Source of the DNA: an uncultured Acidobacteriota bacterium | GTDB taxonomy: Bacteria; Acidobacteriota; Vicinamibacteria; Fen-336 | Direction: 5' to 3' | Assembly: GCA_963831755.1 (NCBI GenBank) | Contig: CAWHRC010000006.1 | Span: 1,832 to 65,831, forward strand | DNA length: 64,000 nt | In this document: positions 1 to 13,190 of the stretch, one piece after another | Numbering within the stretch: the stretch's first letter is position 1 | Layout: each line of letters starts with the position of its first letter | Made by a program: the position numbers and the translations under genes | The notes under the pieces: model-generated | What the model saw: only the letters and a program-made list of their open reading frames with translations | Database searches by the model: none | What the model was told of the DNA's origin: nothing

Positions 1-351
1 TCGAATCCTCTCCACGATAATCGGGGTGTGTCGGCTGGCTGAACGTCGAAGGAACCGTGCGCTTACGTCGAACCTCTTCAGGTCCTCGAGGATGTGATCT
101 CCCGCTGCATCTTCGCCAAGTGTGGCTGCTGGATATGCCCGCCACCCCAAGTACGCTAGGACCGCGAGGACGTTGCCACACGTTCCACCTGCCCAGCAGC
201 GCGGACCCACTCCGGCCCGATCAGTCACGACGATGTCGAGTGCAATTAGCCCTGTGCCCAAGGCGACCGGTCGTCCTGTTGACAGGAACAGACTGTCGGC
301 GCGCGGGCGAAGGGACTGGACCGTGGGATGTCGCATCGAGTCATTCTTCAT
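1..351 (-). CDS. PfkB/ribokinase-like sugar kinase, N-terminal part only (gene runs off the window edge, so it is absent from the ORF track)
   Basis: Own reverse-complement translation from ATG 351..349: MKNDSMRHPTVQSLRPRADSLFLSTGRPVALGTGLIALDIVVTDRAGVGPRCWAGGTCGNVLAVLAYLGWRAYPAATLGEDAAGDHILEDLKRFDVSARFL... The stretch GLIALD...AGGTCGNVLAVLAYLG resembles the N-terminal PfkB signature (GG-x-x-N-x-A...LG). The ATG overlaps the TGA of the upstream gene (ATGA, 351..348). Confidence 0.5.
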   Translation of the reverse strand, partial: MKNDSMRHPTVQSLRPRADSLFLSTGRPVALGTGLIALDIVVTDRAGVGPRCWAGGTCGNVLAVLAYLGWRAYPAATLGEDAAGDHILEDLKRFDVSARFLRRSASRHTPIIVERIR

Positions 352-1445
352 GGAAGGTAGGGTTCTCCTGCGAGCCAGATCTCAGTGGGGCCGCGGCCCG
401 AACCGACTTCAAGCCTCCCTTGCCCATCGAGGAGGACTTGGTAAGTCCCCGCTTCGACATGGCAGACCGGCAACGAACGCTCGATCGCCGCTAGTAGCAT
501 GCCGAGGGACAAGGTCTTGCTCGAGAGAGGCGAAACAACAGTGGTGACTTTCCCGATTGACGGCACGGCACCAAGACGAGTGCGGTAATACTCCTCCACC
601 TCAAGTATCTTCCGGTACACATCGAAGGGGCTGCGCTCATCGCAAAGAAGGAGATTCTCGGGCGAGACCAAGAGTCCCTCGAACAAGAGCTCACCGTGCC
701 TAACGGCAATGTCGTCCACGCGTCGCAGCGAGACGGCGGGAAACGGGAGAATCGGGCAAATCTCGACACACGAGCCCTTGATCTTGTTGTGGAGCTTTTC
801 GAGGCGTACCGCTTCGCTCGTACCCACGAGCGGCAGCCAGACGAGCCTGTCGTCGCCCTGATGTCGAAACGTGTGGAGGTAGTCCGCCTGGCCATACTCG
901 CGCCCCGAAATGCGCGAATCCAAGATGGGATCCTCAACCACCGTGACGTGTAGATTTCGGAAGACGTCCTTCTCCACGAGCCGTAGGAGATAGGCCAGCA
1001 AGGGAAAGAAGACGCCCCGGGGCATGCCGCTGATATCGACCACGACGTCCGAATACTTGCGCAGGACTTCCGTTGCTTGAGTGCCCAATGCGGCCAATGT
1101 CTTCCTGCCGGCGACGTTGTGACCTTCAGGATCATGAGTCTCAACGTCATAAAGAGCCTCATGCCGGCAGCCAGTGATGGTCGGGAGTTCGTCGAGATTT
1201 GCCTTCGTTAGCCTCTCCATGACGACACCGGCCTCGCCCAGTGCCGGGGGCCCCTTAAGCTTCAGAGCGAGATAGCCGAGTCGTTCATCGAGGCCGAGGG
1301 CCGCCAGCGCCTTGAGCGCGAGGAGCGAGCGAGGGTCAAATCCTAGGCCGAGGACCATGAGGATGCGGACTCTGCTATCGCTTGCGCGGTCGGCCCAGAA
1401 GCCAGTGAAGTCCTCGGTGAGGTAGTAGTCCTTCCAGCGCGCCAT
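348..1445 (-). CDS. Hypothetical protein, Rossmann-like, family not recognised (possible ligand-binding/CARF-like fold)
   Basis: 365-aa ORF. Its ATG lies 5 nt after the stop of the upstream NTPase gene and its TGA overlaps the next ATG. It has strand-loop elements RILMVLGLGFDPRS and DVVVDISGMPRG. The latter fits the CARF-type [DN]-x-[ST]-x3-[RK] signature, by pattern only. Confidence 0.6.
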   Translation of the reverse strand: MARWKDYYLTEDFTGFWADRASDSRVRILMVLGLGFDPRSLLALKALAALGLDERLGYLALKLKGPPALGEAGVVMERLTKANLDELPTITGCRHEALYDVETHDPEGHNVAGRKTLAALGTQATEVLRKYSDVVVDISGMPRGVFFPLLAYLLRLVEKDVFRNLHVTVVEDPILDSRISGREYGQADYLHTFRHQGDDRLVWLPLVGTSEAVRLEKLHNKIKGSCVEICPILPFPAVSLRRVDDIAVRHGELLFEGLLVSPENLLLCDERSPFDVYRKILEVEEYYRTRLGAVPSIGKVTTVVSPLSSKTLSLGMLLAAIERSLPVCHVEAGTYQVLLDGQGRLEVGSGRGPTEIWLAGEPYLP

Positions 1446-1450
1446 CCCAG

Positions 1451-3406
1451 TTATCCTTCTCCCGACCAGAGAAGCGTGCCGGAAAGGGCGCTTCGGCGAG
1501 TCATATCGCGTGTCGGCACCGGCTCCTGCATCATCCTGACGAGTAGCTGAACGGGTAGGTGCTGCCAGCCACCGTAGTTCAGGGGAAGGCGGAACTTCAG
1601 ACAGAGCAGTCGGTTGAGATAGAAGACGATCTTTTCACTGCCGGCCTGGCCTTGTTTCGTTATGCGAATCGAGAGGACGTTCCCAGCGACAGCGCTCGTC
1701 AAGACCTCTCGAAAGACGAGGGCTTCAGGCCCTTTGTTCTGGCCTGACACGGCTTGCACTATCTCTTGGCGAGTCAGGCTGAACCCGTTCACTCCAGGCG
1801 CGATTGGAGCGTTGGGCCGATAGGTCACGTCCTCGCAGAATAGGCCCAGATTGTCCACGAACTGTCGGATCGAGGAACCACGGCGGTGCTTCTGCTCCAG
1901 AGCGCCGTAGTAGTCCTCGGCGGATCGCCTGAGAAGCGCCTCCTGTTCCTTGGCTGACATCGCCAGCTCGCGGTCCAGTTCGGCTCTATAGATCATGCGA
2001 TCGACAATTGCAGCAGCAGTCGATAGCAGCTGCTCCACATTGCCGCTTGCCACGCTCGTGAGCGCATCGAATCCGCTGTAGTACGGGAGTCGGAGCCGCC
2101 GACTCAGAAAGAGCGTCGCCGCTTCGGCTGTCTTCGCGTCGGCCGTCTCCGGAATCTCCATTTCTGGGAGGAGCGACGCCTGGCTGCGGTTCGCCTGCCT
2201 TTCCAGAAGAATCAGGGTCTTCTCGAAGTCTGCCAGTTGGGCGACGCTTGGCACAGTCTCGTGTGCACGCGCGCCCGCGGCGGTTAGCTTCTCCGCGAAG
2301 GTGTCGCCACTCCTAAGCTCGGATGAACGCTTGCGCATCCCCTCGAGGGCCTTGACCGCTAGCTCCGCCGCTACGGTTTCGTCAGGGGCTCGGAGTAGTT
2401 CCTTGAAGTCGCTTCCCGTTACCTGCTGGAGCGACTCCGTTGCCATGAGGCGCCGGTGCACAACGTTGGCCGAGAACTTCGCGAACACGCCCGCTCTCTC
2501 TTGAAAGATCTCATCCAGTGGTATCTCCCTATACTCCCGACCCTGCTCGGCTCCCTCAACTGAGATGAGTTCCTCAAGGCCAAAGACGTGTGTCCGTACG
2601 GCAAGCCAGCGCGGTATCGCCGTCCGCCGAATCAGTTCGTTCTTTAGGTGTTGCCGTTGATCAGGATAGAGTTCCTGAACATCGTCAAGCATGACGACCG
2701 GAATCAGCTCAGACAGCGCTGGAATCCTTTGGACCTGCAACGCCAAAAACGCGAGCGCGTAGACGCGCGCGTGGGGCTGTATCGAAGACGGGAGGGGATC
2801 GCCTGGAAAACTGTTGAGCAGCGTCCCGAAGTCTCGTTCAATCTGGGCACAAAGGTCCTCTAGTTGGTCGATCGTTCGGGATTCCCCAAACATGATCGGG
2901 GGGGCGTCTCCCGACGGGAGGGGTTCTAGGCGGCAGTCGGGTGGGAGCTGGACCGCCTCACTCGCTGCGAGGCGGCGAATCGCACGCAAGAAAGACATGA
3001 CAAGCCGCGTGTCGAGAAGCGCGTTGAAGAGGCGAAGCGTGCCCTCCTCAGGTGGGAGGTTCGCGATGTCTCGGAGGCTGCTATCACATTGGATGTAGAT
3101 TCCGATCGCCCTGGGCCCATGGTCGGTGAGGATTCCCAGCTCAGCGAGCCGGTCCACCAGGTCCTGGTCGCTCGGCTGGGATCTCCTAGCGTGGAGTGCG
3201 AGGAGAGTATCCGTCTCGAAAAGGCGCAGGAGACTCGACTTGCCGGACCCGGGACTCCCGCGAACGACTATCAGCTTTGGTACGAAGAGATCGTCGCGTT
3301 GGAGCTGGTCCAACAGCAGAGGGCAGTAGAGCTGGAGAAACTGAGAGGTCTCGATTATGGGCGCGTCTGCGGCGCGGATCTTGAACGCGTTGCGAACCCG
3401 CGGCAC
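1451..3406 (-). CDS. P-loop NTPase (AAA/STAND-like ATP-binding protein) with a long helical C-terminal region
   Basis: 651-aa ORF. Walker A is VVRGSPGSGKSSLL and Walker B-like is IPVVMLDDVQEL. The GTG start lies 2 nt after the stop of the upstream gene. Confidence 0.75.
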   Translation of the reverse strand: MPRVRNAFKIRAADAPIIETSQFLQLYCPLLLDQLQRDDLFVPKLIVVRGSPGSGKSSLLRLFETDTLLALHARRSQPSDQDLVDRLAELGILTDHGPRAIGIYIQCDSSLRDIANLPPEEGTLRLFNALLDTRLVMSFLRAIRRLAASEAVQLPPDCRLEPLPSGDAPPIMFGESRTIDQLEDLCAQIERDFGTLLNSFPGDPLPSSIQPHARVYALAFLALQVQRIPALSELIPVVMLDDVQELYPDQRQHLKNELIRRTAIPRWLAVRTHVFGLEELISVEGAEQGREYREIPLDEIFQERAGVFAKFSANVVHRRLMATESLQQVTGSDFKELLRAPDETVAAELAVKALEGMRKRSSELRSGDTFAEKLTAAGARAHETVPSVAQLADFEKTLILLERQANRSQASLLPEMEIPETADAKTAEAATLFLSRRLRLPYYSGFDALTSVASGNVEQLLSTAAAIVDRMIYRAELDRELAMSAKEQEALLRRSAEDYYGALEQKHRRGSSIRQFVDNLGLFCEDVTYRPNAPIAPGVNGFSLTRQEIVQAVSGQNKGPEALVFREVLTSAVAGNVLSIRITKQGQAGSEKIVFYLNRLLCLKFRLPLNYGGWQHLPVQLLVRMMQEPVPTRDMTRRSALSGTLLWSGEG

Positions 3407-3408
3407 CG

Positions 3409-4671
3409 CTACGCCCCCTCGCGGCCGTGGCGCTCATAGCGCACAAAGAGTGGATTGAAGTACTCCCTCCTGCGGGCCCACAGCACGTAGAGGGAGTTAT
3501 TGGGTGTGTTGTGGTGCAGCACGAGCGGCAGGCCGCATCTGTCGAAGCCAAACTTGACGCAGCCCGTGTGGTGATCCCCGAAGTCATCGGAGTAGTACTT
3601 CTCGCAGAGTGCACCGATGGGTGTGGCCGACGAGGTGACCTGAGTGTGGGAGCCCAAAACTGCGGCGGGCAGGATCTGCGTTCGCGCGAACGGCCCAGGG
3701 AGCCGAGGCAAGAGGGGTCGCAAGCGATTCAGAGCATGTTCCGTCGTGAGAAGCGGGCAGAAGAAGACGGCAGCAGTCGGGTCAAGAGCGTCCGCGAGGG
3801 CGCGGCCCGCCTTGCACAGCGCTCCCTTGAGAACGGTATCGGCCATCCTGCTCTTGTTCACGAGGGAGTTGACTGCAGCAATGTAGTCCTCATCGGTTCC
3901 CATTCGTAGCATGGATTCTTGGTCCGCGGCCGAAACGTCGCCTTCGTACAGAAGCTCGAGCTCGTGCGTCTCCTGGTGGTAGCGGAATCGCGACTGCCAG
4001 AGCTGGGGAATCGTCGGTGGAGTGGCGTGAGGACTCAATCCACCTACGACAACCTCACGGAGAAGGGTCCGGCCAGACCCCGTGAAGTCGTCAAGAAGAA
4101 AGAGACAGCGGAAGGCGGCAGCCGGAGCGCCGGAGGCCGCGCGAAGATCCTTGAGGATGTCCTTGACCTTCTCCGGCGAGGTCTCGTAGTAGGGAATCAC
4201 CTGCTCGTTGCTGATATCGAGATTGTGGCGACGGATGTAGTCGATCCTTGCTCCGTCGCTCATGCCAACGTAGAGGGATGCCCGAGCAACGGACTTGAAG
4301 TCGGCAGACTCATGAATGGCACGGACTCGATGGGGCGGGTGCCCGGAAGCAGCCGCCGCGATCTCGATCTGCCGCCTCCTGATCACGTCGTGGTACAGAA
4401 CGGCAGCGAGTTGTTGGAACTCCTGCCTCGAGATGAAGATCAAGTCACGCCGGACGAAGTCCAGAGCGGCTTGCCGTTCGCCCTCATCGAACTGCTGGAG
4501 CCAGAGGTAGAGATTCTCCAAGAACAGACGGCCTGGATGATACATCTCGTACTTGTTGTACTTGTAGTCGGCGAGGAATTGCAGCTCGCGAAAGAGGTTG
4601 GCGGCAGCCGCCTCGTCTGTGAGGCCAGGGAGCGTGGTCTGGAGAAGGCGAAGCGCGAGCTCCCTCTTCAA
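3409..4671 (-). CDS. Phosphoribosyltransferase-like (PRTase-fold) protein
   Basis: 420-aa ORF. A PRPP-loop-like motif CLFLLDDFTGSGRTLL sits mid-protein and the flanking regions are not recognised. The TTG start overlaps the upstream TGA (TTGA, 4671..4668). Confidence 0.55.
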   Translation of the reverse strand: MKRELALRLLQTTLPGLTDEAAAANLFRELQFLADYKYNKYEMYHPGRLFLENLYLWLQQFDEGERQAALDFVRRDLIFISRQEFQQLAAVLYHDVIRRRQIEIAAAASGHPPHRVRAIHESADFKSVARASLYVGMSDGARIDYIRRHNLDISNEQVIPYYETSPEKVKDILKDLRAASGAPAAAFRCLFLLDDFTGSGRTLLREVVVGGLSPHATPPTIPQLWQSRFRYHQETHELELLYEGDVSAADQESMLRMGTDEDYIAAVNSLVNKSRMADTVLKGALCKAGRALADALDPTAAVFFCPLLTTEHALNRLRPLLPRLPGPFARTQILPAAVLGSHTQVTSSATPIGALCEKYYSDDFGDHHTGCVKFGFDRCGLPLVLHHNTPNNSLYVLWARRREYFNPLFVRYERHGREGA

Positions 4672-6626
4672 GAGTGAAACCTCCTGGCTGACGTCGGCGA
4701 CAGAAGCCGTGGCACTGCAAGTCTGAAGGTGCCCTTGGAGATCTGAATGGCGTTAAGGTAGACGAGGGTTGCCTGAACGCCGCGGTACCCGGGCGGGGCC
4801 AGATTCCAGCAGGTGTTCGGATCGGCAGAGACCTCATCGACGCTCAACGAGAGCGGGGCCCTGAGCAGGTCGAAGTCATTCCCCGGCCACCGACCCTTGT
4901 CTCCAATGAGGAGCACTCGTGTGCCGTCTCGAAGGCCGCTCTCCAGTAGGGTGAGTAGCGAGCGTTTGGAAACTTGCCGCGTCACTAGATCCACGGAATG
5001 ACTGGACGTGATCGCTCGCAGGTCGTGGACCTGTGCCACCTCCTCTACAACGCGCCAAGTCAGATCTCTCCAGGCTGGCACCGTGGGTTGGACGGAGACT
5101 TGCGCCGACCTTGGCTCGCAAACGGCCGCTGCAGAGATCGCCGGGTGCCGTACTAGTAGGTCCGCGGCATAATCGAGAGATTCAGAACGTGGCAAAGAGG
5201 GGTTCGGATGGCCGTCCTCGCTGAGAGAGCCGATATCGGCTGCGTTGTAGTATCCGACATACACGTTCCTCCACAGCCGCTTGGGTAGTGCCTTCCTGAA
5301 GTCCTCCCTGACAGACCTTCCGCGACCGGTCGCCACCCCAACGGGAATGCCTGCCATCAGGAGGCGGCTCAGGTGGCCTACGACGTCCGGCCGAACACCG
5401 GTGAATCGATCCCGTTCGTCACACAAGGTGCCGTCGTAGTCGAGGACGATGGCGCCGAACACAGCTCGAGCGAGATCTGCGAGAAACCGCCGCTGAGCAT
5501 CCTGCCAAGGAGCGAGGTCTGTACGATCTGATAGTGCTTGAACGTCGCAGCCGAGTTTTCGTGCGATTGGGGCTGCGTCGGTTGAAGACAAAACCTTGAT
5601 CCGGGTCCGCGGAGTTCGGAGGCGATAGATCCGCCGCCCGAAGGCCGGGACTCCCGGTCGGCCCGGATCTATGCCGCGCACTTGCCCGGCAAACCCTACG
5701 AGATGGAGCACAGCAACGAGTCCCGCGACAGCGGCCGTGGACCCAGTGTGCGGCAGGCAGATTCGGACAACAGGAGTGGTGCGGGGAATGAGTGCCAGTG
5801 TCTTGTCGGCGAGGTCTTGTTCGTCAGAGGAGAACATTGCGACCACTGCCGTGGTCGAAGCGTGCTTGGCGAGCCAATGGTGTCGCCCGTGAGCGAAGTT
5901 TCGGAAGTCGGCAAGCTGAGTATTACCGAGTGCAGCCTCGGAGAACTTGGATTCCAGATCTACAGCAGCGGAGGATACGTTTGGTCCGTACAACATCACC
6001 AGGGTGTTCCGTTCCCAGAGAGCCTGGGACCTCGCGCGGAGCGCCCCTATTCCGTCACTACCGAAACCAGCGTAGGCAAGCAAGGCGTCGAACGAACGGG
6101 GAAGTTGCTCGCTCGAACCCGATACGGTGTTGTAGGCGCGCACCAGTAGAACGGCAAAGGCCAGAAGGGAATTCGTGGCCAGAAAGCCATCCTTGCCCCA
6201 CGGGGCTGCCAGTTCAACGAGGTCCACGAACCGGTACGACTGCGCGAGGCGAGAGAGAGAGCTTCGCTCCCGGAGGCAGAAGGCCGCGCACCGGCGTGGT
6301 TCTCTGCACGCGGCGCTCTCGAGCGCCGAGAGGATATCCGCGTTGGAACCACCGGCACTCAGGACCATCACGGCTAAAGAGCGGAGGTTGATGGGAGACG
6401 AGAGGAGCTCGAGCGGCGTAGTCGGCCGCGCCAGCTTGCCGGCATGGCGCTGATGGAGGAGGCACGCAAGGTGCGCGGCAGAGAACGAACCTCCGGACCC
6501 CACTGCGAGCAGGGGGAACGACGCACATGCAGAGACTGCTGCAGCCAGCGCGTCGATCGGCACCCCCAGCGCCCAGACATAGGTCTCGCTCAGTCGAGAC
6601 AGTTCACTGACGTAGGGTCTGCCCAT
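4668..6626 (-). CDS. SIS-SIS-HAD fusion protein (double sugar-isomerase/phosphosugar-binding domain plus HAD-IIB-like phosphatase)
   Basis: 652-aa ORF. SIS motifs are PLLAVGSGGSFSAAHL and VMVLSAGGSNADIL, with a second SIS-like half DLESKFSEAALGNTQLADFRNFAHGRHHW. C-terminal HAD motifs are DYDGTL (I), VGVATGRG (II) and LLIGDKGRWPGNDFDLL (IV). Confidence 0.7.
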   Translation of the reverse strand: MGRPYVSELSRLSETYVWALGVPIDALAAAVSACASFPLLAVGSGGSFSAAHLACLLHQRHAGKLARPTTPLELLSSPINLRSLAVMVLSAGGSNADILSALESAACREPRRCAAFCLRERSSLSRLAQSYRFVDLVELAAPWGKDGFLATNSLLAFAVLLVRAYNTVSGSSEQLPRSFDALLAYAGFGSDGIGALRARSQALWERNTLVMLYGPNVSSAAVDLESKFSEAALGNTQLADFRNFAHGRHHWLAKHASTTAVVAMFSSDEQDLADKTLALIPRTTPVVRICLPHTGSTAAVAGLVAVLHLVGFAGQVRGIDPGRPGVPAFGRRIYRLRTPRTRIKVLSSTDAAPIARKLGCDVQALSDRTDLAPWQDAQRRFLADLARAVFGAIVLDYDGTLCDERDRFTGVRPDVVGHLSRLLMAGIPVGVATGRGRSVREDFRKALPKRLWRNVYVGYYNAADIGSLSEDGHPNPSLPRSESLDYAADLLVRHPAISAAAVCEPRSAQVSVQPTVPAWRDLTWRVVEEVAQVHDLRAITSSHSVDLVTRQVSKRSLLTLLESGLRDGTRVLLIGDKGRWPGNDFDLLRAPLSLSVDEVSADPNTCWNLAPPGYRGVQATLVYLNAIQISKGTFRLAVPRLLSPTSARRFHS

Positions 6627-6671
6627 TTGCTCGATGACGTTGGCCGGCCCGCGACAGCCGCGGCGGACGCG

Positions 6672-6869
6672 CTAGGGGGGAGGAGGCCCATCCACTGCCG
6701 CTCCGCCGCTACGCACCCACTCGTCGACCTCCTCTTTCTTGAACTTCCAGAGCTTTCCGATTTTGTGCGCGGGGAGCCGTCGACGCTCGATCCATCGGTA
6801 CACGGACGCCTTCACGACGCCTAGGTACTCAGCGATCTCGTCGACTGACAACCATCGATCGGCGGCCAT
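6672..6869 (-). CDS. Excisionase/MerR-type helix-turn-helix DNA-binding protein
   Basis: Sequence is MAADRWLSVDEIAEYLGVVKASVYRWIERRRLPAHKIGKLWKFKKEEVDEWV, the classic excisionase-family HTH. I prefer the internal ATG at 6869 (GGAG just upstream) over the track start at 6980. It lies 45 nt upstream of the SIS-HAD gene on the same strand. Confidence 0.75.
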   Translation of the reverse strand: MAADRWLSVDEIAEYLGVVKASVYRWIERRRLPAHKIGKLWKFKKEEVDEWVRSGGAAVDGPPPP

Positions 6870-6924
6870 ATCTCCGGACCCCGCGTCGACATCCCACCTC
6901 GAGCGCGTCACAACAGTATGCCAG

Positions 6925-6950
6925 AGTATACTAGGAGTTAACAAAGTCAA
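6925..6950 (-). promoter_or_regulatory. Promoter-like elements upstream of the HTH gene (TTGACT-N14-TATACT on the minus strand) with an AGTATACT palindrome
   Basis: Minus-strand TTGACT is at 6950..6945 and TATACT at 6930..6925, in a locally AT-richer patch. The spacer is only 14 nt, so this is suboptimal. AGTATACT (6925..6932 on the plus strand) is self-complementary and a related CAGTATGC sits just beside it. Confidence 0.3.
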
Positions 6951-7274
6951 CTCTACACCGGCAGGGCCCTGGGGCCCCACGAGGTCCCCTCGTTACGAAC
7001 CTGAAGCACGTCAGCGCGACCTACGAGTCGCTGGATCTCCTCGCCAAGCGCTGCAGCCTGATATCCAGCGCTGGGTGTCCGGGGAGCCGGCTGCGCGGCA
7101 GCTGCTCAGGAGGGCGACGGACTCAGGCTAGGACCCACGCGACGTGCTCCGGAAGCTAGAGCAGGTCCTGAAGGAGGACGGGCGAGGGGAATGAGACCTT
7201 CGCGCGACCTCCAAGGCTCCTGGGGCCAGAGGCTGTGGACCGATAGGATGAGTTTGACGCGGCGGTGAACGACC

Positions 7275-7674: not shown

Positions 7675-8157
7675 TAGGGAAAGACTACGGGTCTAACATC
7701 TCGCTGTCGTCGAGCCGCCACCTCGGCCCGGTGGCATCGTAGTTGTAGGACACGCGCCAGTTCCGGAAGTCGTCCTTGGTGAACCGGGCCTCCTCCACGA
7801 AGTCCACCGACGTCGCTGGCGCCTTCCGACGTCGGCTGGGAGCCCGAGCTGGAAGAGGTTCGTCAGCTTGATCTTCACGTTGCGCCCTTGACGCGGACGC
7901 GTACGGGCCAGTAGTGGCCGTCCCCGTTGTACCGCCCGCGCTCCTGGATTTGGACTGAGTCGACGACCGCCAGGTAGGTAGGGCCAGCCGTTGGCGGCGA
8001 GGGCGGCGATTTCCTGACCGCAGCGGTCACCTCTCCGTCGCTGGGCCCCGACTCCAGAAGGCGACACCCCAGGCCGCTCGTCAGCAAGAGTCCGCCTGCT
8101 ACCACTGCACGAGATTCGCCACGCGGACACGGTTCCTCCTCGGAGGCGTCCGTAGCC

Positions 8158-8857
8158 TCAGTCCGACGGGCTGCCACGCCTGCCTTGCGTCCTGCGGAGC
8201 GTCGTCCAGAACCCGAGCATCACCAGGCCGAGGCTCGCCGCTGCAACGCGCCACGGGCTCACCGACACGTTGACCCTCGGGGCGTGCCGACCCGCGGCGG
8301 CCACCAAGCGTGCCTGAGCCCGCTCCAGCGCGAGGACGACCCTCCGCACCGCTGGCCGCTCCGTCGGATCCGGCGCCAGCGCCTGCATCAGAACGCGCTC
8401 CAAGCCCGCGGTCCACCGCTGGCGCCAGCACACGAAGCGGCTTGGGCCGGTCCGCGAGTTGGAGCCTTCGGAGTGATGTGACGGACGCTCCTGGCGCCAC
8501 CTCGTAGGGGAGGCGGCCCCCCGCGAAGAGAGCGTAGAGCGTGGCGCCGAGCCCGTAGACGTCGTGGTGTGGGCCGACAGGCTCGCCCGCCAGCGCTTCC
8601 GGGGATGCGAACCGCGGCGTGCCGGTGATGCTGCCGGGAGGTGTCGACGCCGCCACCTCGGCCAGCCGCGCGATGCCAAAGTCGCTGACTTTGGCGGCTG
8701 GCCGTCCGGAGGTCGGAAGGAGCACGTTCGCCGGCTTGATGTCGCGGTGCAGCACGCCGTGGCGGTGCGCATGCCACACGCATCGGCTCACGGCCAGGGC
8801 GATCTCGTAGGCGCGGACCAGAGGGAGGCGTTCGCCGGCAGTGGCCAGCCGGTCCAG
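8158..8857 (-). pseudogene. Hanks-type Ser/Thr protein kinase, C-lobe plus C-terminal TM tail; N-terminus missing, one frameshift
   Basis: Sequence reads LDRLATAGERLPLVRAYEIALAVSRCVWHAHRHGVLHRDIKPANVLL...KVSDFGIARL...GTPRFASPE...DVYGLGATLYALFAG. It then changes frame near 8405-8412 to continue ERVLMQALAPDPTERPAVRRVVLALE...AAASLGLVMLGFW. No Gly-loop or VAIK region lies upstream on this strand. Confidence 0.8.
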
Positions 8858-8868
8858 CTCCTCCTGCA

Positions 8869-9017
8869 CCTGAGCTGCTGGAGCGAGTCCGGCAGGAGGT
8901 CCGCGCGGTACAGGCGCTCGCGACCCCTTACCTCGTCCACACCTACAGCCTCTTCGACCGCGGGACGATCGCCTGGTTCGAGATGGAGCTGGTGGATGGA
9001 CCGACGCATGAGCCGCC
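8869..9017 (+). pseudogene. Inverted fragment of the same or a related kinase (alpha-C helix to hinge)
   Basis: Plus-strand translation gives PELLERVRQEVRAVQALATPYLVHTYSLFDRGTIAWFEMELVDGPT(HEPP*), which is kinase subdomains III-V. It abuts the minus-strand C-lobe head to head at about 8868/8869. Un-inverting it would give ...MELVDGPT / LDRLATAGERLPL... Confidence 0.65.
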
Positions 9018-10954
9018 GTGAGTGGGTAGCCTGCCTCGGCGCGAGTCTGGGACTCCTGGCTGCCCACCGAGCTCCGGCCTGGCTTGCCTCGTCGAGTGGC
9101 TGGCCTGCTCTCGCGGCCGGCGAGCCTGCGACCGCGAACTACGTCACCTGGCTTCTCGTGCTTCCGCTGCCCGTCGTCGGCTCCATCCTCGCCTGCGGCC
9201 TGCTGACCTTCGCAGAGGTCCACGGCGTGGCCGGCCCGCAGCGGCGCCGGCGCCGACCGTTGCCGAGGTACCCGTTCGACTCCAGCACGACCCAGCTCGT
9301 CATCGGCGAGACTCACCTCCAGGACGGCTCGCGGTCGGAGCAGCCGGGCTGGCTCGTCCTGCCCGAGAAGGGCATGTACACGGGCATCCTCATCACCGGT
9401 GCCACCGGCTCCGCCAAGACCTCGGCGGCGCAGTACCCGTTCACAGCGCAGCTCATTCACCAGCACGCTCGAGACCCGGCCCGGAAGATGGGCGGACTCG
9501 TCATCGACGCCAAGGGCAACTACGCCGACTTCGCGCGCGAGCAGTGCGCCCTGGCCGGCCGGCTGGCCGACTACTACGAGGTCAGCCTCACGAGCGGCGT
9601 CCGCTGGAACATCATCGGCCGGCCGGACCTGAACGCGGCCGCCCTCGGCGGCCATATCGCGGACATGATCGAGAACGTCCAGGGGACCTCCCTGGCCGAC
9701 CCCTTCTGGCACCAGGAGGCGAAGGACCTGGCCTCTCAGGTGATCCGGGTTCTCCGGCTCGCCGAGGGGCGAGAGCCCACGATGGCCTCGCTCTACCGGG
9801 CAGCCACGTCCTACGAGGCCTTCGAGGAGTACGTGAAGCTGGCCGAGAAGCGCATCAACACCGCCGAGCAGCAGGAGGAGCTCGCCTCGATCAAGTTCTG
9901 GCTCGAGGCCAAGGCCGCGAAGCTGGACGCCAAGCTCAGGGCCTCCATCGCCGCCGGCCTGAATGGCGTGTGCTCCCTCTTCGACGATCCGAAGATCCGC
10001 GAGGTGTTCGCCCCGGACCCGCTTTGGGAGAACTTCAAGGGCTTCGACCGCCTCATCGAGGAAGGCCAGATCGTTGCCCTCCGCGTGCCGAAGTCCCAGC
10101 TCAAGACCGTTTCGACGATCGTCGGGACAATGACCAAGCTGAACTTCTTCGACGCGGTCCTCAACCGCCTGGCCCGAGCCGAGCACGCCTTCGGCGACGT
10201 CGGCCGCGGCGTCTTCTTCGTCGCGGACGAGTACGACGGGTACACCACGCAGCCCGGCGACGGAGACTTCTTCTCCAAGTGCCGTGAGGCTCAATGCTGT
10301 GCGGTGATCGCGACGCAGACCTACGAGAGCTTCGTGGCGAAGCTCAAGAACGAGCATGTGGCGGCGCAGCTCATCGCCAACCTCCGGACGAAGATCTGGC
10401 TCTGCGCCGAAGACAACTACACCGCGAGGCAGGCAGCAGACCTTTGTGGCGAAATCGAGCGGAAGAAAGTCAGTCGCTCCCGGAACGAGAGTGCACGGCA
10501 CTCGTCGTTCTCGTTCCTCGACGGCGACGTGATCGCCGCGGACCCAGGCTCCGTGGGCGAGGGCATCACGATCAGCCTTCGGCGAGAGCATCTCTTCACG
10601 CCCCGGGCCTTCACCAGCCTCAAGGTCAACCAGGCCATCGTCAAACTGTTCGACGGCGTGCGCGTCCTCGAGCCCTGGGTCGTCTACCTCAAGCCCATGC
10701 ACGAGAACCCGGAGGTGTCGTGGTTCGACACCACGGGACGCGCGCCGGAGGAGCCCGCCTCCGAACGGCCGTGCTCCCAGCTCAGGGCGTTGCGCGTCTT
10801 GACGCCCCTCCTCACGAGAGGCCTGAGGCTCTTGCGACTCCGGCCCTGGGCCTCGGTGCGTCCGTCTGCGGCGAGCCCACAGTCGCAGACTCCCCCCGCA
10901 GCACAGGAGACGGGCCAGACCAACCAGGACGGAATCCAAGCCTCTCACCCCTGA
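8996..10954 (+). CDS. Type IV coupling protein (TraD/TraG/VirD4-like conjugative ATPase)
   Basis: N-terminal TM helices (YVTWLLVLPLPVVGSILACGLLTF), Walker A ITGATGSAKTS, VIDAKGNY, Walker B FFVADEYD, and AVIATQTYESF. The start is taken at MDRRMSRREW (8996; alternative 9008) inside the 796-aa track ORF. Confidence 0.8.
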   Translation: MDRRMSRREWVACLGASLGLLAAHRAPAWLASSSGWPALAAGEPATANYVTWLLVLPLPVVGSILACGLLTFAEVHGVAGPQRRRRRPLPRYPFDSSTTQLVIGETHLQDGSRSEQPGWLVLPEKGMYTGILITGATGSAKTSAAQYPFTAQLIHQHARDPARKMGGLVIDAKGNYADFAREQCALAGRLADYYEVSLTSGVRWNIIGRPDLNAAALGGHIADMIENVQGTSLADPFWHQEAKDLASQVIRVLRLAEGREPTMASLYRAATSYEAFEEYVKLAEKRINTAEQQEELASIKFWLEAKAAKLDAKLRASIAAGLNGVCSLFDDPKIREVFAPDPLWENFKGFDRLIEEGQIVALRVPKSQLKTVSTIVGTMTKLNFFDAVLNRLARAEHAFGDVGRGVFFVADEYDGYTTQPGDGDFFSKCREAQCCAVIATQTYESFVAKLKNEHVAAQLIANLRTKIWLCAEDNYTARQAADLCGEIERKKVSRSRNESARHSSFSFLDGDVIAADPGSVGEGITISLRREHLFTPRAFTSLKVNQAIVKLFDGVRVLEPWVVYLKPMHENPEVSWFDTTGRAPEEPASERPCSQLRALRVLTPLLTRGLRLLRLRPWASVRPSAASPQSQTPPAAQETGQTNQDGIQASHP

Positions 10955-11208
10955 GAGGCGGTTCGCCGAGCGAGGCCCAGCGTGGTTCGCCTTGCCCGCC
11001 CCGCGGCGGCCGGCACCGCTTCCGTCTCCCACGGGAGTCCCGGAGCCCGCGACTTCATCCAGGCCTCGACGTTGTCTAGCACGAAGCCGCAGTTGCGTTC
11101 GGTGATGCGCACCGGCCGCGGGAACGCCCCGGCCTGGACCATCCGCCATAGCGTCGTTCGGGAAACGCCGATCATCTCGAGCACCTGCCGAGGTCTTATG
11201 AACTGCAC
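10945..11208 (-). CDS. AlpA-family phage/ICE transcriptional regulator (HTH)
   Basis: Sequence is MQFIRPRQVLEMIGVSRTTLWRMVQAGAFPRPVRITERNCGFVLDNVEAWM, a typical AlpA/Phage_AlpA pattern. It is convergent with the T4CP gene and overlaps it by 10 nt. Confidence 0.8.
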   Translation of the reverse strand: MQFIRPRQVLEMIGVSRTTLWRMVQAGAFPRPVRITERNCGFVLDNVEAWMKSRAPGLPWETEAVPAAAGRARRTTLGLARRTASQG

Positions 11209-11586
11209 CGTCCACCTCCGATTCGCTGCCCACGGCCACTAGGCCACACACGGTGCAAGTCGGAGACCACGACGCCAGACGATCAGTCGCGTCGTAAGTC
11301 CTTGTCCTTCAGCAGCCCACCTTCACGCGGCTGTCTCGCAAGTGAGAAGAGAGTCCACGGCGATTTCAGCCGAGAGATGACGGCGGAAGTCGTTCGTCGG
11401 ATGTCGTGCGAACTGCCGGCCTGCCCTGCTGGAACGCCCAGCACACTACGAACGAGGCTCGCTTTTCGCCTTGACTGAGGAGTCCAGATTCCCTTGTTCG
11501 GCGACGCGGTCCAACCCCCCGTGCCAATAATCCGTGAGACACCGAGCCGTCCGAGATTAGTGTAGGGGGCGGGGAGGCTGAGATGG

Positions 11587-12063
11587 ATGGATCGAGAGGC
11601 TGCTGGATCTGGTTCTGAGATGAAGCATGCGGCGGAAACGGAGGGAGCCCGTAGGGCGACCGGAGTTTCCGCCGACGCCGGCGGGGCCCCCGACCCCGAG
11701 GTGGTGGCGAAGCCGAAGCGTCGCCGCTTTACCGCCGAGTACCGGCTGAAGATCTTGAAGCAGGCGGACGCCTGCAAGGCGCCCGGCGAGCTGGGCGCTC
11801 TGCTGCGGCGTGAGGGTCTGTACTCGTCGCTGCTGTCGACCTGGCGCCGCCAGCGGGAGCAAGGGGCCCTGGCCGCGCTGCGAGGGCGCAAGCGCGGCCC
11901 GAAGCCCAAGGCCGTAGATCCGCGAGTGAAGGAGCAGGAGAAGCAGATCGCGCGCCTGCAGCGGAAGCTGAAGCAGGCCGAGATGATCATCGAAGTCCAA
12001 AAAAAAGTGCACGAGATCCTGGGGATCCCCCTGAGAACCCTCGCCGACGAAGAGGACGACTGA
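11587..12063 (+). CDS. IS3-family transposase OrfA (HTH/leucine-zipper part)
   Basis: Sequence is RRRFTAEYRLKILKQADACKAPGELGALLRREGLYSSLLSTWRRQREQGAL...EKQIARLQRKLKQAEMIIEVQKK. The stop overlaps the orfB ATG (TGATG). Confidence 0.85.
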   Translation: MDREAAGSGSEMKHAAETEGARRATGVSADAGGAPDPEVVAKPKRRRFTAEYRLKILKQADACKAPGELGALLRREGLYSSLLSTWRRQREQGALAALRGRKRGPKPKAVDPRVKEQEKQIARLQRKLKQAEMIIEVQKKVHEILGIPLRTLADEEDD

Positions 12064-13190
12064 TGTCGGCGATCGCCGAGGTCGGTGCCGAAGTCCCAAC
12101 CGCCCCGCTGTGCGAGAGCCTGGGCGTCTCACGGGCCGCACTCTACCGCTGGCGTCAGCCGAAGCTCGACATCGAACCCAAGCCGGCGCGGGCGAGGCAT
12201 CCCCGCTCGCTTGGACCGGACGAGCGCCAAGCGATCCTCGATACGCTGAACTCCGAGCGCTTCTGCGATGCCTCCCCAGCCGAGGTCCACGCCACCCTGC
12301 TCGAGGAAGAGACCTACCTCGGCTCGCCGAGGACGATGTACCGAGTGCTGGCCGAGGCACACGAGGTCCGCGAACGGCGCGACCAGCTGCGGCATCCGCC
12401 CTACGCCAAGCCCGAGCTCCTGGCCACCCAGCCGAACCAGGTCTGGTCCTGGGACATCACCAAGCTCAAGGGCCCGGTCAAGTGGACGTACTTCTACCTG
12501 TTCGTCATCCTCGACATCTTCAGCCGCTACGTGGTCGGCTGGATGGTCGCCCACGGCGAGGGCGCCCGGCTGGCCGAACGGCTGATCGAGGAGACCTGCA
12601 CCAAGCAGAACATCTCGCCGGGCCAGCTCACCATCCACGCCGATCGCGGACCGGCCATGACCAGCAAGACCGTCGCGCTGCTCTTCTCGGACCTCGACAT
12701 CCTGCGTAGCCACTCGAGGCCCTACGTCAGCGACGACAATCCCTTCTCGGAGTCCCACTTCAGGACCCTCAAGTACCGGCCCGACTTCCCTGATCGTTTC
12801 GGCTCGGTCGAGCACGCGCGTCAGGCATGCCGCCCGCTGTTCGCCTGGTACAACGCCGAGCATCACCACAGCGCTCTGGCCTTCCTCACGCCGGCCACCG
12901 TGCACCACGGCCGCGCCGACGAGGCCCTCGATGCTCGTCACCGCGTCCGCCTCGCCGCCTACGCCGCCCACCCCGAGCGCTTCGTCAACGGGCCGCCGCG
13001 GCGCCAGAACCTACCGAACGCTGTTTGGATCAACCCACCCGAGGAAACGACGCACCAGGATGCCCCAGGATCAACGCAGCGAAATCCGGACGACCCTGAG
13101 GTCGTCCCCGTTTGCCGCACTTACGTGCCGTACCGTCGACCGCAGGCGGGCCAGCTCGACTCCGTCAGCATCGTGCAGCCCGCTCACTAA
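12063..13190 (+). CDS. IS3-family transposase OrfB (DDE integrase core, rve)
   Basis: Sequence is WSWDITKLKGPVKWTYFYLFVILDIFSRYVVGW...IHADRGPAMTSK...SHSRPYVSDDNPFSESHFRTLKY, the D, D, E catalytic-core pattern. Confidence 0.9.
   Translation: MSAIAEVGAEVPTAPLCESLGVSRAALYRWRQPKLDIEPKPARARHPRSLGPDERQAILDTLNSERFCDASPAEVHATLLEEETYLGSPRTMYRVLAEAHEVRERRDQLRHPPYAKPELLATQPNQVWSWDITKLKGPVKWTYFYLFVILDIFSRYVVGWMVAHGEGARLAERLIEETCTKQNISPGQLTIHADRGPAMTSKTVALLFSDLDILRSHSRPYVSDDNPFSESHFRTLKYRPDFPDRFGSVEHARQACRPLFAWYNAEHHHSALAFLTPATVHHGRADEALDARHRVRLAAYAAHPERFVNGPPRRQNLPNAVWINPPEETTHQDAPGSTQRNPDDPEVVPVCRTYVPYRRPQAGQLDSVSIVQPAH

Follow-up and report, generated by a model that had tools for sequence, protein, structure and literature searches.

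CARF domains have become known above all as the receptors of cyclic oligoadenylates made by type III CRISPR systems, and to our knowledge little has been established about the roles of CARF proteins outside CRISPR loci. A locus from an uncultured Acidobacteriota bacterium (GenBank assembly GCA_963831755.1, contig CAWHRC010000006.1) raises the question of what such a protein might sense when it is encoded among enzymes of sugar-phosphate metabolism. The stretch analysed, referred to below as the window, comprises 64,000 nucleotides; close to its first position lies gene D (348..1445, minus strand), which has an ATG start, encodes a protein of 365 amino acids, and comes fourth in the compact minus-strand operon A-B-C-D-E. 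An earlier note on this DNA, made by inspection of the letters alone, had described the D protein as unknown and had seen in it, by eye, a motif typical of CARF ligand-binding domains. The description as unknown has to be given up, since the family of D is already modelled as CARF6 in PADLOC-DB. The CARF reading, on the other hand, was upheld by full-length matches to CARF6 models, by cross-matches specific to CARF families, by the appearance of Csm6 and Can2 as the top structural neighbours of its first domain, and by a conserved motif after strand 4. Sequence profiles give good support to placing D in the CARF superfamily and, within it, in the CARF6 clade, and the predicted structure is compatible with this. 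D is best described as a stand-alone tandem CARF-like protein, the second half of which is by sequence the more canonical.

Assignment of D to the CARF6 clade

Profile searches revealed similarity between D and recognised CARF families. The PADLOC model PDLC01910, labelled 'CARF6--CARF_CARF_CARF', matched D with E=1.7e-74, residues 3-363 aligning with profile positions 2-347 of 348, and a second CARF6 model also matched over the full length of D, with E=1.7e-49. When 124 representatives of the family, one for each sequence cluster, were compared with 5,027 PADLOC models, every one of them (124/124) matched CARF6. Their weak matches outside the clade were to CARF3 (several models, up to seven members), CARF1_HEPN (five members), Csx1 (two), CARF_m11 (two) and CARF4_PDDEXK (one), and only two such off-family matches were to models of other kinds. 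The two halves of the protein were also scanned separately against PADLOC, with weak matches to CARF-type models. Domain 1 (aa ~25-190; 876..1373, minus strand) matched CARF3 and CARF2_HEPN, with some noise, and domain 2 (aa ~198-360; 366..854, minus strand) matched Csx1, CARF3, CARF1, CARF8 and CARF_HEPN, with little noise. Alignment of domain 2 with the CARF domain of Thermus thermophilus Csm6 using hhalign, with a shallow Csm6 alignment of 8 sequences, gave a weak signal with E=7.8e-4 and a probability of 25%, the aligned region running through helix 3, strand 4, the motif, helix 4 and strand 5. Comparison by hhalign of each half with the single sequences of T. thermophilus Csm6 and of Can1 was negative, and the only Pfam CARF family found among the 124 members was Csa3_N, in 1/124, with E=0.09.

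Within the CARF6 clade of PADLOC-DB v2 D is a family member, with no difference at the family level. No experimental characterisation of the clade was found; no Pfam or NCBIfam model matched it, and it has no solved structure. This is therefore an unexplored known family and not a new one, since the D family and two of its partners are already present in curated model libraries. The CARF6 models (PDLC01910, PDLC01916 and related models) presumably go back to the survey of CARF proteins by Makarova et al. 2020. Other CARF6 models in PADLOC bear the labels CARF_CARF_CARF_TM and CARF_STK_AAA. Judging by these labels, some relatives of the domain would share a chain with membrane segments, or with a Ser/Thr kinase and an AAA ATPase, and such fusions would be a Rosetta-stone hint of the partnership between CARF6 proteins and ATPases.

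Conserved motifs of the two domains

The CARF domain has been defined by a six-stranded Rossmann-like core, in which the last two strands form a hairpin, often by a polar Ser or Thr at the end of strand 1, and by a conserved basic residue just after strand 4 that often lies within the pattern [DN]x[ST]xxx[RK] (PMC4012209). The ligand pocket is located at the loops following strands 1 and 4 (PMC4012209), and these are the positions at which the conserved motifs of D are found. The three peptides quoted in the earlier note are all present in D, RILMVLGLGFDPRS at aa 27-40, SDVVVDISGMPRGVFFPLLAYLL at aa 132-154 and TTVVSPLSSKTLSLG at aa 301-315. As had been proposed, the sequence D137-I-S139-G-M-P142-R143 (1017..1037, minus strand) directly follows a hydrophobic strand, which in the AlphaFold2 model is strand 133-137, the fourth of domain 1. 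The proposal that a second, similar element lies in TTVVSPLSSKTLSLG was likewise confirmed: S305-P-L-S-S309-K310 (516..533, minus strand) follows strand 300-305, the fourth of domain 2, and its K310 is invariant. A basic residue is accordingly found just after strand 4 in both domains, R143 in the first and K310 in the second. As for the suggestion that RILMVLGLGFDPRS holds the strand-1 element, the loop G35-F36-D37-P38-R39 (1329..1343, minus strand) does follow the first strand (28-34) of domain 1, with G-F-D-x-R in place of the canonical Ser or Thr.

The pattern by itself is not significant, for at least one match to [DN]x[ST]xxx[RK] occurs in 27% of shuffled versions of D, and the phosphoribosyl pyrophosphate (PRPP) loop of the gene B product (DFTGSGR) satisfies it as well. 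The motif nevertheless carries weight because of its position and because of its conservation in two sets of relatives, namely 81 non-identical homologues from bacteria and archaea (27-79% identity) and the 124 cluster representatives. Among the 81, D137 is kept in 80 (with one Asn), S139 in 79, P142 in all 81 and R143 in 71 (88%). In the strand-1 loop G35, F36, D37 and R39 are each retained in 79-80 of the 81 homologues, position 40 being variable (M/A/T/S/C). S305 and K310, with S-x4-K spacing, are present in 81/81. Among the 124 representatives D37 and R39 do not vary, making up two of the family's four invariant residues, D137, S139, S305 and K310 are at least 90% conserved, and R143 falls below 90%. 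Within the domain 1 motif it is this canonical basic residue that is kept least well. The motifs are kept from Planctomycetota to archaea.

Domain 2 is the better conserved of the two, with a mean column identity of 47% as against 38% for domain 1. Its strand-1 region keeps W203-x-P205-x-x-G208, the loop E228-I-C230-P-I-L-P234-F-P236 (738..764, minus strand) is invariant or nearly so, and invariant polar residues stand at the ends of its strands (E228, C230, R241/R242, D244, E270, N272, Y277, S305, S309 and K310).

Predicted structure of D

The AlphaFold2 model of D, built on 39 homologues, has a pLDDT of 91.8 and a pTM of 0.92 and consists of two tandem Rossmann-like alpha/beta domains. In domain 1 six strands are predicted (aa 28-34, 56-64, 94-102, 133-137, 164-169 and 179-184), alternating with helices, and the layout predicted for domain 2 is comparable. 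In domain 1 a short helix (173-177) separates strand 5 from strand 6, and the latter no longer appears when this domain is modelled alone (pLDDT 87). In a Foldseek search of the PDB with the domain 1 model the first-ranked match was Csm6 with bound cyclic hexa-adenylate (cA6) (9w3v_A, E=8.9e-4, TM-score 0.42); apo Csm6 (9w3u_A, TM 0.44) and Can2 with bound cyclic tetra-adenylate (cA4) (8q44_B, TM 0.42) were also found, and these TM values are the best in the list, with a probability of 1.00. A Foldseek search of viral structures with D returned nothing below E=1e-3.

Two other identities were considered and set aside. Matches to LarE raised the possibility of a PP-loop ATPase, which was rejected on finding no SGGxDS motif after strand 1. 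Universal stress proteins (USPs) matched at the level of the fold only: their G-x2-G-x9-G-[ST] motif was absent on reading the sequence of D, and Pfam Usp was not among the 25 families matched by most of the 124 members.

Organisation of the gene cassette

D is encoded within a compact set of five genes, all on the minus strand. The stop codon of D (TGA) overlaps the ATG of gene E at 351 (ATGA), and only 5 nt separate C from D, a Shine-Dalgarno-like sequence, GGAGAAGG, lying inside the end of C. Obligatory linkage and translational coupling connect D with an AAA+ ATPase, a phosphoribosyltransferase (PRTase)-type effector and a sugar-phosphate module, and this assembly is carried on mobile elements, as described below.

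The neighbours named in the earlier note were all identified. Gene A (4668..6626) was recognised by PDB profile search as a double-SIS and HAD-IIB fusion of 652 aa, in which aa ~23-323 match double-SIS structures of the phosphosugar isomerase and glucosamine 6-phosphate (GlcN6P) deaminase type (8eol, 3hba, E=1.3e-8) and aa ~374-606 match HAD-IIB sugar phosphatases and phosphomannomutases (E 4e-7 to 1e-3). The SIS motif GSGGS and the HAD motifs DxDGT, K554 and GD..ND are invariant. Gene B (3409..4671) encodes a PRTase-CE protein of 420 aa (Pfam PF24390, E=7.3e-18; PADLOC PRTase_III-A) with an invariant PRPP-type loop, LLDDFxxSGxT (D194, D195, S199 and G200); against PDB sequences it gave no match at all. 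Gene C (1451..3406) encodes an ORC-CDC6-like AAA+ ATPase of 651 aa (Pfam PF24389, E=4.7e-36), the Walker A (G53, G55, K56) and Walker B (D241) residues of which are conserved. Gene E (1..351) is cut by the edge of the window, which contains the N-terminal 117 aa of a PfkB-family sugar kinase; on another contig, whose D product is identical, the full product has 384 aa. The structures hit by the profile of the E family, with E=1e-20, are those of fructokinase, ketohexokinase and ribokinase; both the GG motif and DxxGAGD are kept. With their motifs intact, all four partners look catalytically competent. The families PF24390 and PF24389 were, we assume, defined in the work of Nicastro et al. 2023. 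Genes A and C are without a PADLOC model, and PADLOC v2 accordingly does not define the cassette as a system.

There is no cyclase or nucleotidyltransferase among the five genes, which would leave A, E or B as the source of any signal generated within the cassette.

Two further features of the partners were noted. The N-terminal ~130 residues of the B protein, outside the part that Pfam matches best (aa 298-411), are well conserved, and K37, Y38, Y41, G47, F50 and W57 vary little or not at all. In the E family (for example, L002:7507-8670) the consensus includes an internal CPxCG and a C-terminal CxxC, the cysteines of which are not all invariant; the sequence suggests that these elements form an inserted zinc-ribbon-like module, which would be unusual for PfkB sugar kinases.

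Conservation of gene order and linkage

Linkage was examined by iterative (jackhmmer) searches of all the fetched loci, of which ~84 were tabulated. All five genes are present in every locus that has enough flanking sequence. The order A-B-C-D-E is found in 60 loci, A-E-..-B-C-D in 13 (alphaproteobacteria) and B-C-D-A-E in two (Actinomycetota); nine others include a split gene B, truncations at contig ends and the D-E remnant L010. The block B-C-D is never broken, A and E always move together, and C is always immediately upstream of D.

L010, at 9995-12212 in a metagenome-assembled genome of the Acidobacteriaceae, has D and E only, with unrelated genes upstream despite 10 kb of flanking sequence, and may represent either what is left of a decayed cassette or a minimal pair of D and E. 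In loci of the A-E-..-B-C-D type (L026, L037, L052, L064 and L084) the gap of ~1 kb (about 5,940-6,860) contains two conserved extra genes, one on the minus strand for a NADAR-domain protein (Pfam PF08719, E=1.5e-26) and one on the plus strand, directly upstream of B, for an XRE-type helix-turn-helix (HTH) protein. The NADAR family is linked to ADP-ribose and N-glycoside processing, and the NADAR gene may hint at the chemistry of the system.

Distribution and mobile context

The D family comprises 690 cluster representatives when the threshold is set at E<=1e-3, and 306 of them also pass E<=1e-30. Nearly all are of ~355-385 aa and align with D from end to end, which indicates a stand-alone protein without fusions. 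The relatives are annotated as hypothetical in every named source and are encoded in 162 of 185,579 species-representative genomes. Their bacterial hosts are Planctomycetota, Acidobacteriota, Gemmatimonadota, Bacteroidota, Bacillota, Actinomycetota and Alpha-, Gamma- and Deltaproteobacteria, and the archaeal hosts are Methanoregula, Methanotrichaceae and Nitrosopumilus. D relatives were found on 19 plasmids, nine of them conjugative, and none were found in phage genomes. In a conjugative plasmid of Sulfitobacter the cassette lies between the relaxase and coupling-protein genes and the VirB operon. In other genomes the flanks, within 5 kb, are rich in integrases, genes for conjugation or type IV secretion systems (T4SS), AbiEii, Fic/SoFic, SIR2/ThsA, AbiC and MADS components, the models for mad3 and mad8 of MADS being among those that match cassette-flanking genes. 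No CRISPR-like array was detected in the 64-kb window or in 85 loci, and tblastn searches of the same material with T. thermophilus Cas10, Csm, Cmr, Cas1 and Cas2, which are of limited sensitivity, were also negative.

In the window itself the cassette has a GC content of ~0.60, against ~0.70 in the remainder, the step occurring around 7-8 kb. Immediately upstream of the cassette is a gene for a 102-aa excisionase/MAD1-like HTH protein (6672..6980, minus strand; Pfam HTH_17, 1.8e-18), which matches PADLOC mad1 with E=6.9e-14 and scores 78.2 bits with the NCBIfam model antiphage_MADS1, below its 80-bit cut-off. It may be a regulator or part of the mobile element. There follow genes for a T4SS coupling protein (8564-10954, plus strand), an AlpA-like regulator (10945-11208, minus strand) and an IS3-family transposase (11587-13190, plus strand). 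Given the GC step and the T4SS, AlpA-like and IS3 genes beyond it, the cassette lies at the edge of an integrative or conjugative element. An open reading frame of 1050 aa on the minus strand (8099-11251), which runs antisense to the coupling-protein gene, is probably an artefact of the high GC content.

Comparison with known systems

D has a Rossmann-like sensor fold in common with Csm6/Csx1 (CARF-HEPN) and Can2/Card1 (CARF-PD-D/ExK), which provide the best structural neighbours of its domain 1; the motif after strand 4 reads D-L-T-S-G-T-K in T. thermophilus Csm6 and D-I-S-G-M-P-R in D. It differs from these type III effectors in that it is without an effector domain of its own, is not near Cas10 or a CRISPR array, and has no cyclic oligoadenylate synthase in its cassette. 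Neither the linkage to cas10 nor the fused effector by which an ancillary CARF effector of type III CRISPR would be recognised was found, the search for cas genes being of limited sensitivity. Whereas Csm6- and Can2-type proteins are homodimers, D carries two unlike domains in one chain, and the Ser or Thr of strand 1 has given way to G-F-D-x-R. The presence of two CARF-like domains in a single polypeptide recalls Can1 and SAVED, and would allow an asymmetric ligand to be recognised. Unlike those proteins, D has halves without detectable mutual sequence similarity, and its cassette has no CD-NTase partner; no models of the SAVED/Cap4 type are among the reported PADLOC matches of D or its 124 relatives.

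The products of B and C match both families of the PRTase-CE/ORC-CDC6-like conflict systems (PF24390 and PF24389), and the two genes are adjacent in every locus, L001-L004 and all complete loci included. For the five-gene cassette, for CARF6 and for combinations with a PRTase-CE partner nothing relevant was found in the literature searched, the key papers on CARF6 and PRTase-CE lying outside it. Two analogies may be drawn. The SIS, PfkB and HAD enzymes of the heptose-phosphate pathway, GmhA, HldA (HldE) and GmhB, together build a sugar 1-phosphate from a ketose phosphate. The resemblance to A and E is confined to the superfamily level and the families differ: the SIS part of A is a double-SIS of the GlmS/NagB-II/FrlB type (GmhA was matched only with E=0.47), E is fructokinase/ketohexokinase-like, and the HAD domain of A is of type IIB. 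In the PUA-Calcineurin-CE-HAD system, where 'CE' denotes a conflict effector, as it does in PRTase-CE, a PUA sensor binds phage-generated m6-dAMP, and the HAD and CE enzymes act in a sequential depletion cascade (PMC12871103). The logic of a small-molecule sensor, a nucleotide-attacking conflict effector and a HAD phosphatase is common to that system and the present cassette; the former differs in having PUA in place of CARF and a calcineurin-like enzyme in place of the PRTase, in having no AAA+ ATPase, SIS domain or kinase, and in having been experimentally validated (PMC12871103).

A proposed role for D, and the alternatives

It is proposed, with moderate confidence, that D is the ligand-binding regulatory subunit of a five-gene, mobile, non-CRISPR conflict system directed against phages or plasmids. 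Taken alone, a CARF-type sensor role for D is rather likely. Together its two unlike domains would make up a pseudo-dimeric pocket without symmetry, on the pattern of Can1 or SAVED, and this pocket would bind a phosphorylated sugar or a (mono)nucleotide-like ligand and not a symmetric cyclic oligoadenylate; it is because the halves of D differ that such a pocket is envisaged, and it would suit a ligand of this kind. The A/E module, comprising a PfkB kinase, a double-SIS isomerase and a HAD phosphatase or mutase, might make or convert the ligand. Binding might then be relayed from D to the adjacent ORC/Cdc6-like AAA+ switch C, and the switch would license the PRTase-CE protein B to attack nucleotides, arresting the cell or the invader. 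That the neighbouring enzymes make the ligand of D, as the earlier note had surmised, is less likely than the sensor role and is offered tentatively; it would fit the obligatory linkage of the five genes.

Several observations weigh against a CARF-type sensor. No signal was obtained by hhalign between domain 1 and the Csm6 CARF alignment, the same method detected no similarity between domain 1 and domain 2 that would betray an internal duplication, D matched nothing in Pfam or NCBIfam, and the profile of its family had 0 matches at E<=10 among PDB sequences. Structural similarity to solved CARF domains is weak, the TM-scores all being below 0.5, and these structures are interleaved in the list with LarE, DOT1L, FNR and the USP domain of KdpD, which binds cyclic di-AMP (c-di-AMP). 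When the whole chain is used as the query, Foldseek ranks the C-terminal domains of KCC/NKCC transporters and tandem USPs first in the PDB (E 1e-7 to 1e-5), KaiC being another of the two-domain Rossmann matches. The canonical Ser or Thr is absent after strand 1, a residue which is typical and not obligatory, as the 2014 definition says 'often' (PMC4012209), and R143 is only 88% conserved. Finally, conservation of polar residues as unusually strong as that in domain 2 (E228, C230, D244, E270, Y277, S305 and K310) is met with more typically in enzymes than in sensors. It might accordingly be supposed that D is no CARF protein at all, but a tandem USP-like or generic Rossmann nucleotide-binding protein in which DxSxxxR is coincidental, as the whole-chain ranking, the low TM-scores with CARF structures and the frequency of the pattern in shuffled sequences would allow. 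This is very improbable. The top whole-chain matches have TM-scores of only 0.2-0.3 and root-mean-square deviations of ~18-20 A, and the ranking was judged to be an artefact of domain arrangement, domain 1 being searched separately instead; the best TM-scores of that domain are with CARF structures, the USP motif is missing on reading the sequence, Pfam Usp is not among the 25 families matched by most members, the hidden Markov model of CARF6 matches at the level of E=1e-74, and the cross-matches are CARF-specific. The invariant polar residues at the strand ends of domain 2, together with a mean column identity of 47% across bacteria and archaea that is unusually high for CARF, lend more substance to the idea that D is itself an enzyme, either a ring-nuclease-like phosphodiesterase that ends the signal or a step in a sugar-nucleotide pathway. 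Many CARF domains are indeed ring nucleases that use Ser/Thr together with Lys. Such an identity is still improbable, since D matches no enzyme family in Pfam, NCBIfam or among PDB sequences, the cassette lacks a cyclic-oligonucleotide synthase to supply the substrate, and contacts made with the C and E proteins could account for the conservation just as well.

Other alternatives concern the cassette as a whole. D might sense a nucleotide derived from an invader or from damage, with B, A and E constituting a multi-enzyme nucleotide-depletion cascade in which the PRTase-CE protein removes the base and the SIS, HAD and PfkB enzymes process or futile-cycle the sugar phosphate. The PUA-Calcineurin-CE-HAD cascade is a precedent (PMC12871103), B is labelled a 'conflict effector' by its Pfam name, PRTase-CE, B-C-D form one invariant block to which A and E are a separate, movable module, and the alphaproteobacterial variant carries a gene of NADAR N-glycosidase type between the modules. 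This account is somewhat unlikely, because it is hard to see what a sugar kinase would do in a degradative cascade, and a kinase, an isomerase and a phosphatase or mutase look more like a short biosynthetic route, comparable at the superfamily level to GmhA/HldA/GmhB. Three of the five genes encode ordinary types of sugar-phosphate enzyme, and RefSeq annotates no more than a 'HAD hydrolase' and a 'carbohydrate kinase', so the cassette could also be imagined as a mobile operon for the salvage or catabolism of sugars or nucleosides, with D as its metabolite-binding regulator. That is the least probable of the readings considered here, given a core without a conserved transporter or DNA-binding regulator, the obligatory ORC/Cdc6-like ATPase and conflict-type PRTase, and a rare, patchy and cross-domain distribution on conjugative elements and in defence islands.

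Implications

The proposed conflict system, with D as its ligand-binding subunit, could in its most far-reaching form represent a new kind of immune signalling, in which a phosphosugar or PRPP-like messenger would be built by the kinase, double-SIS and HAD enzymes, and possibly the PRTase, read by an asymmetric tandem-CARF receptor, and relayed by the AAA+ switch to the PRTase; this is advanced as a speculation and is, as a complete scheme, unlikely. What the distribution reveals is a protein of a CARF clade that is locked to a cyclase-free cassette, which is carried by the conjugative plasmids and islands of archaea and of at least eight phyla of bacteria. The cassette makes it directly testable what a non-CRISPR CARF protein senses beside sugar-phosphate enzymes, and D, which is small, soluble-looking and confidently modelled, offers clear residues to mutate. 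If the cassette is a defence system, it would provide a tractable route to a CARF ligand other than a cyclic oligoadenylate, and possibly to a new messenger chemistry.

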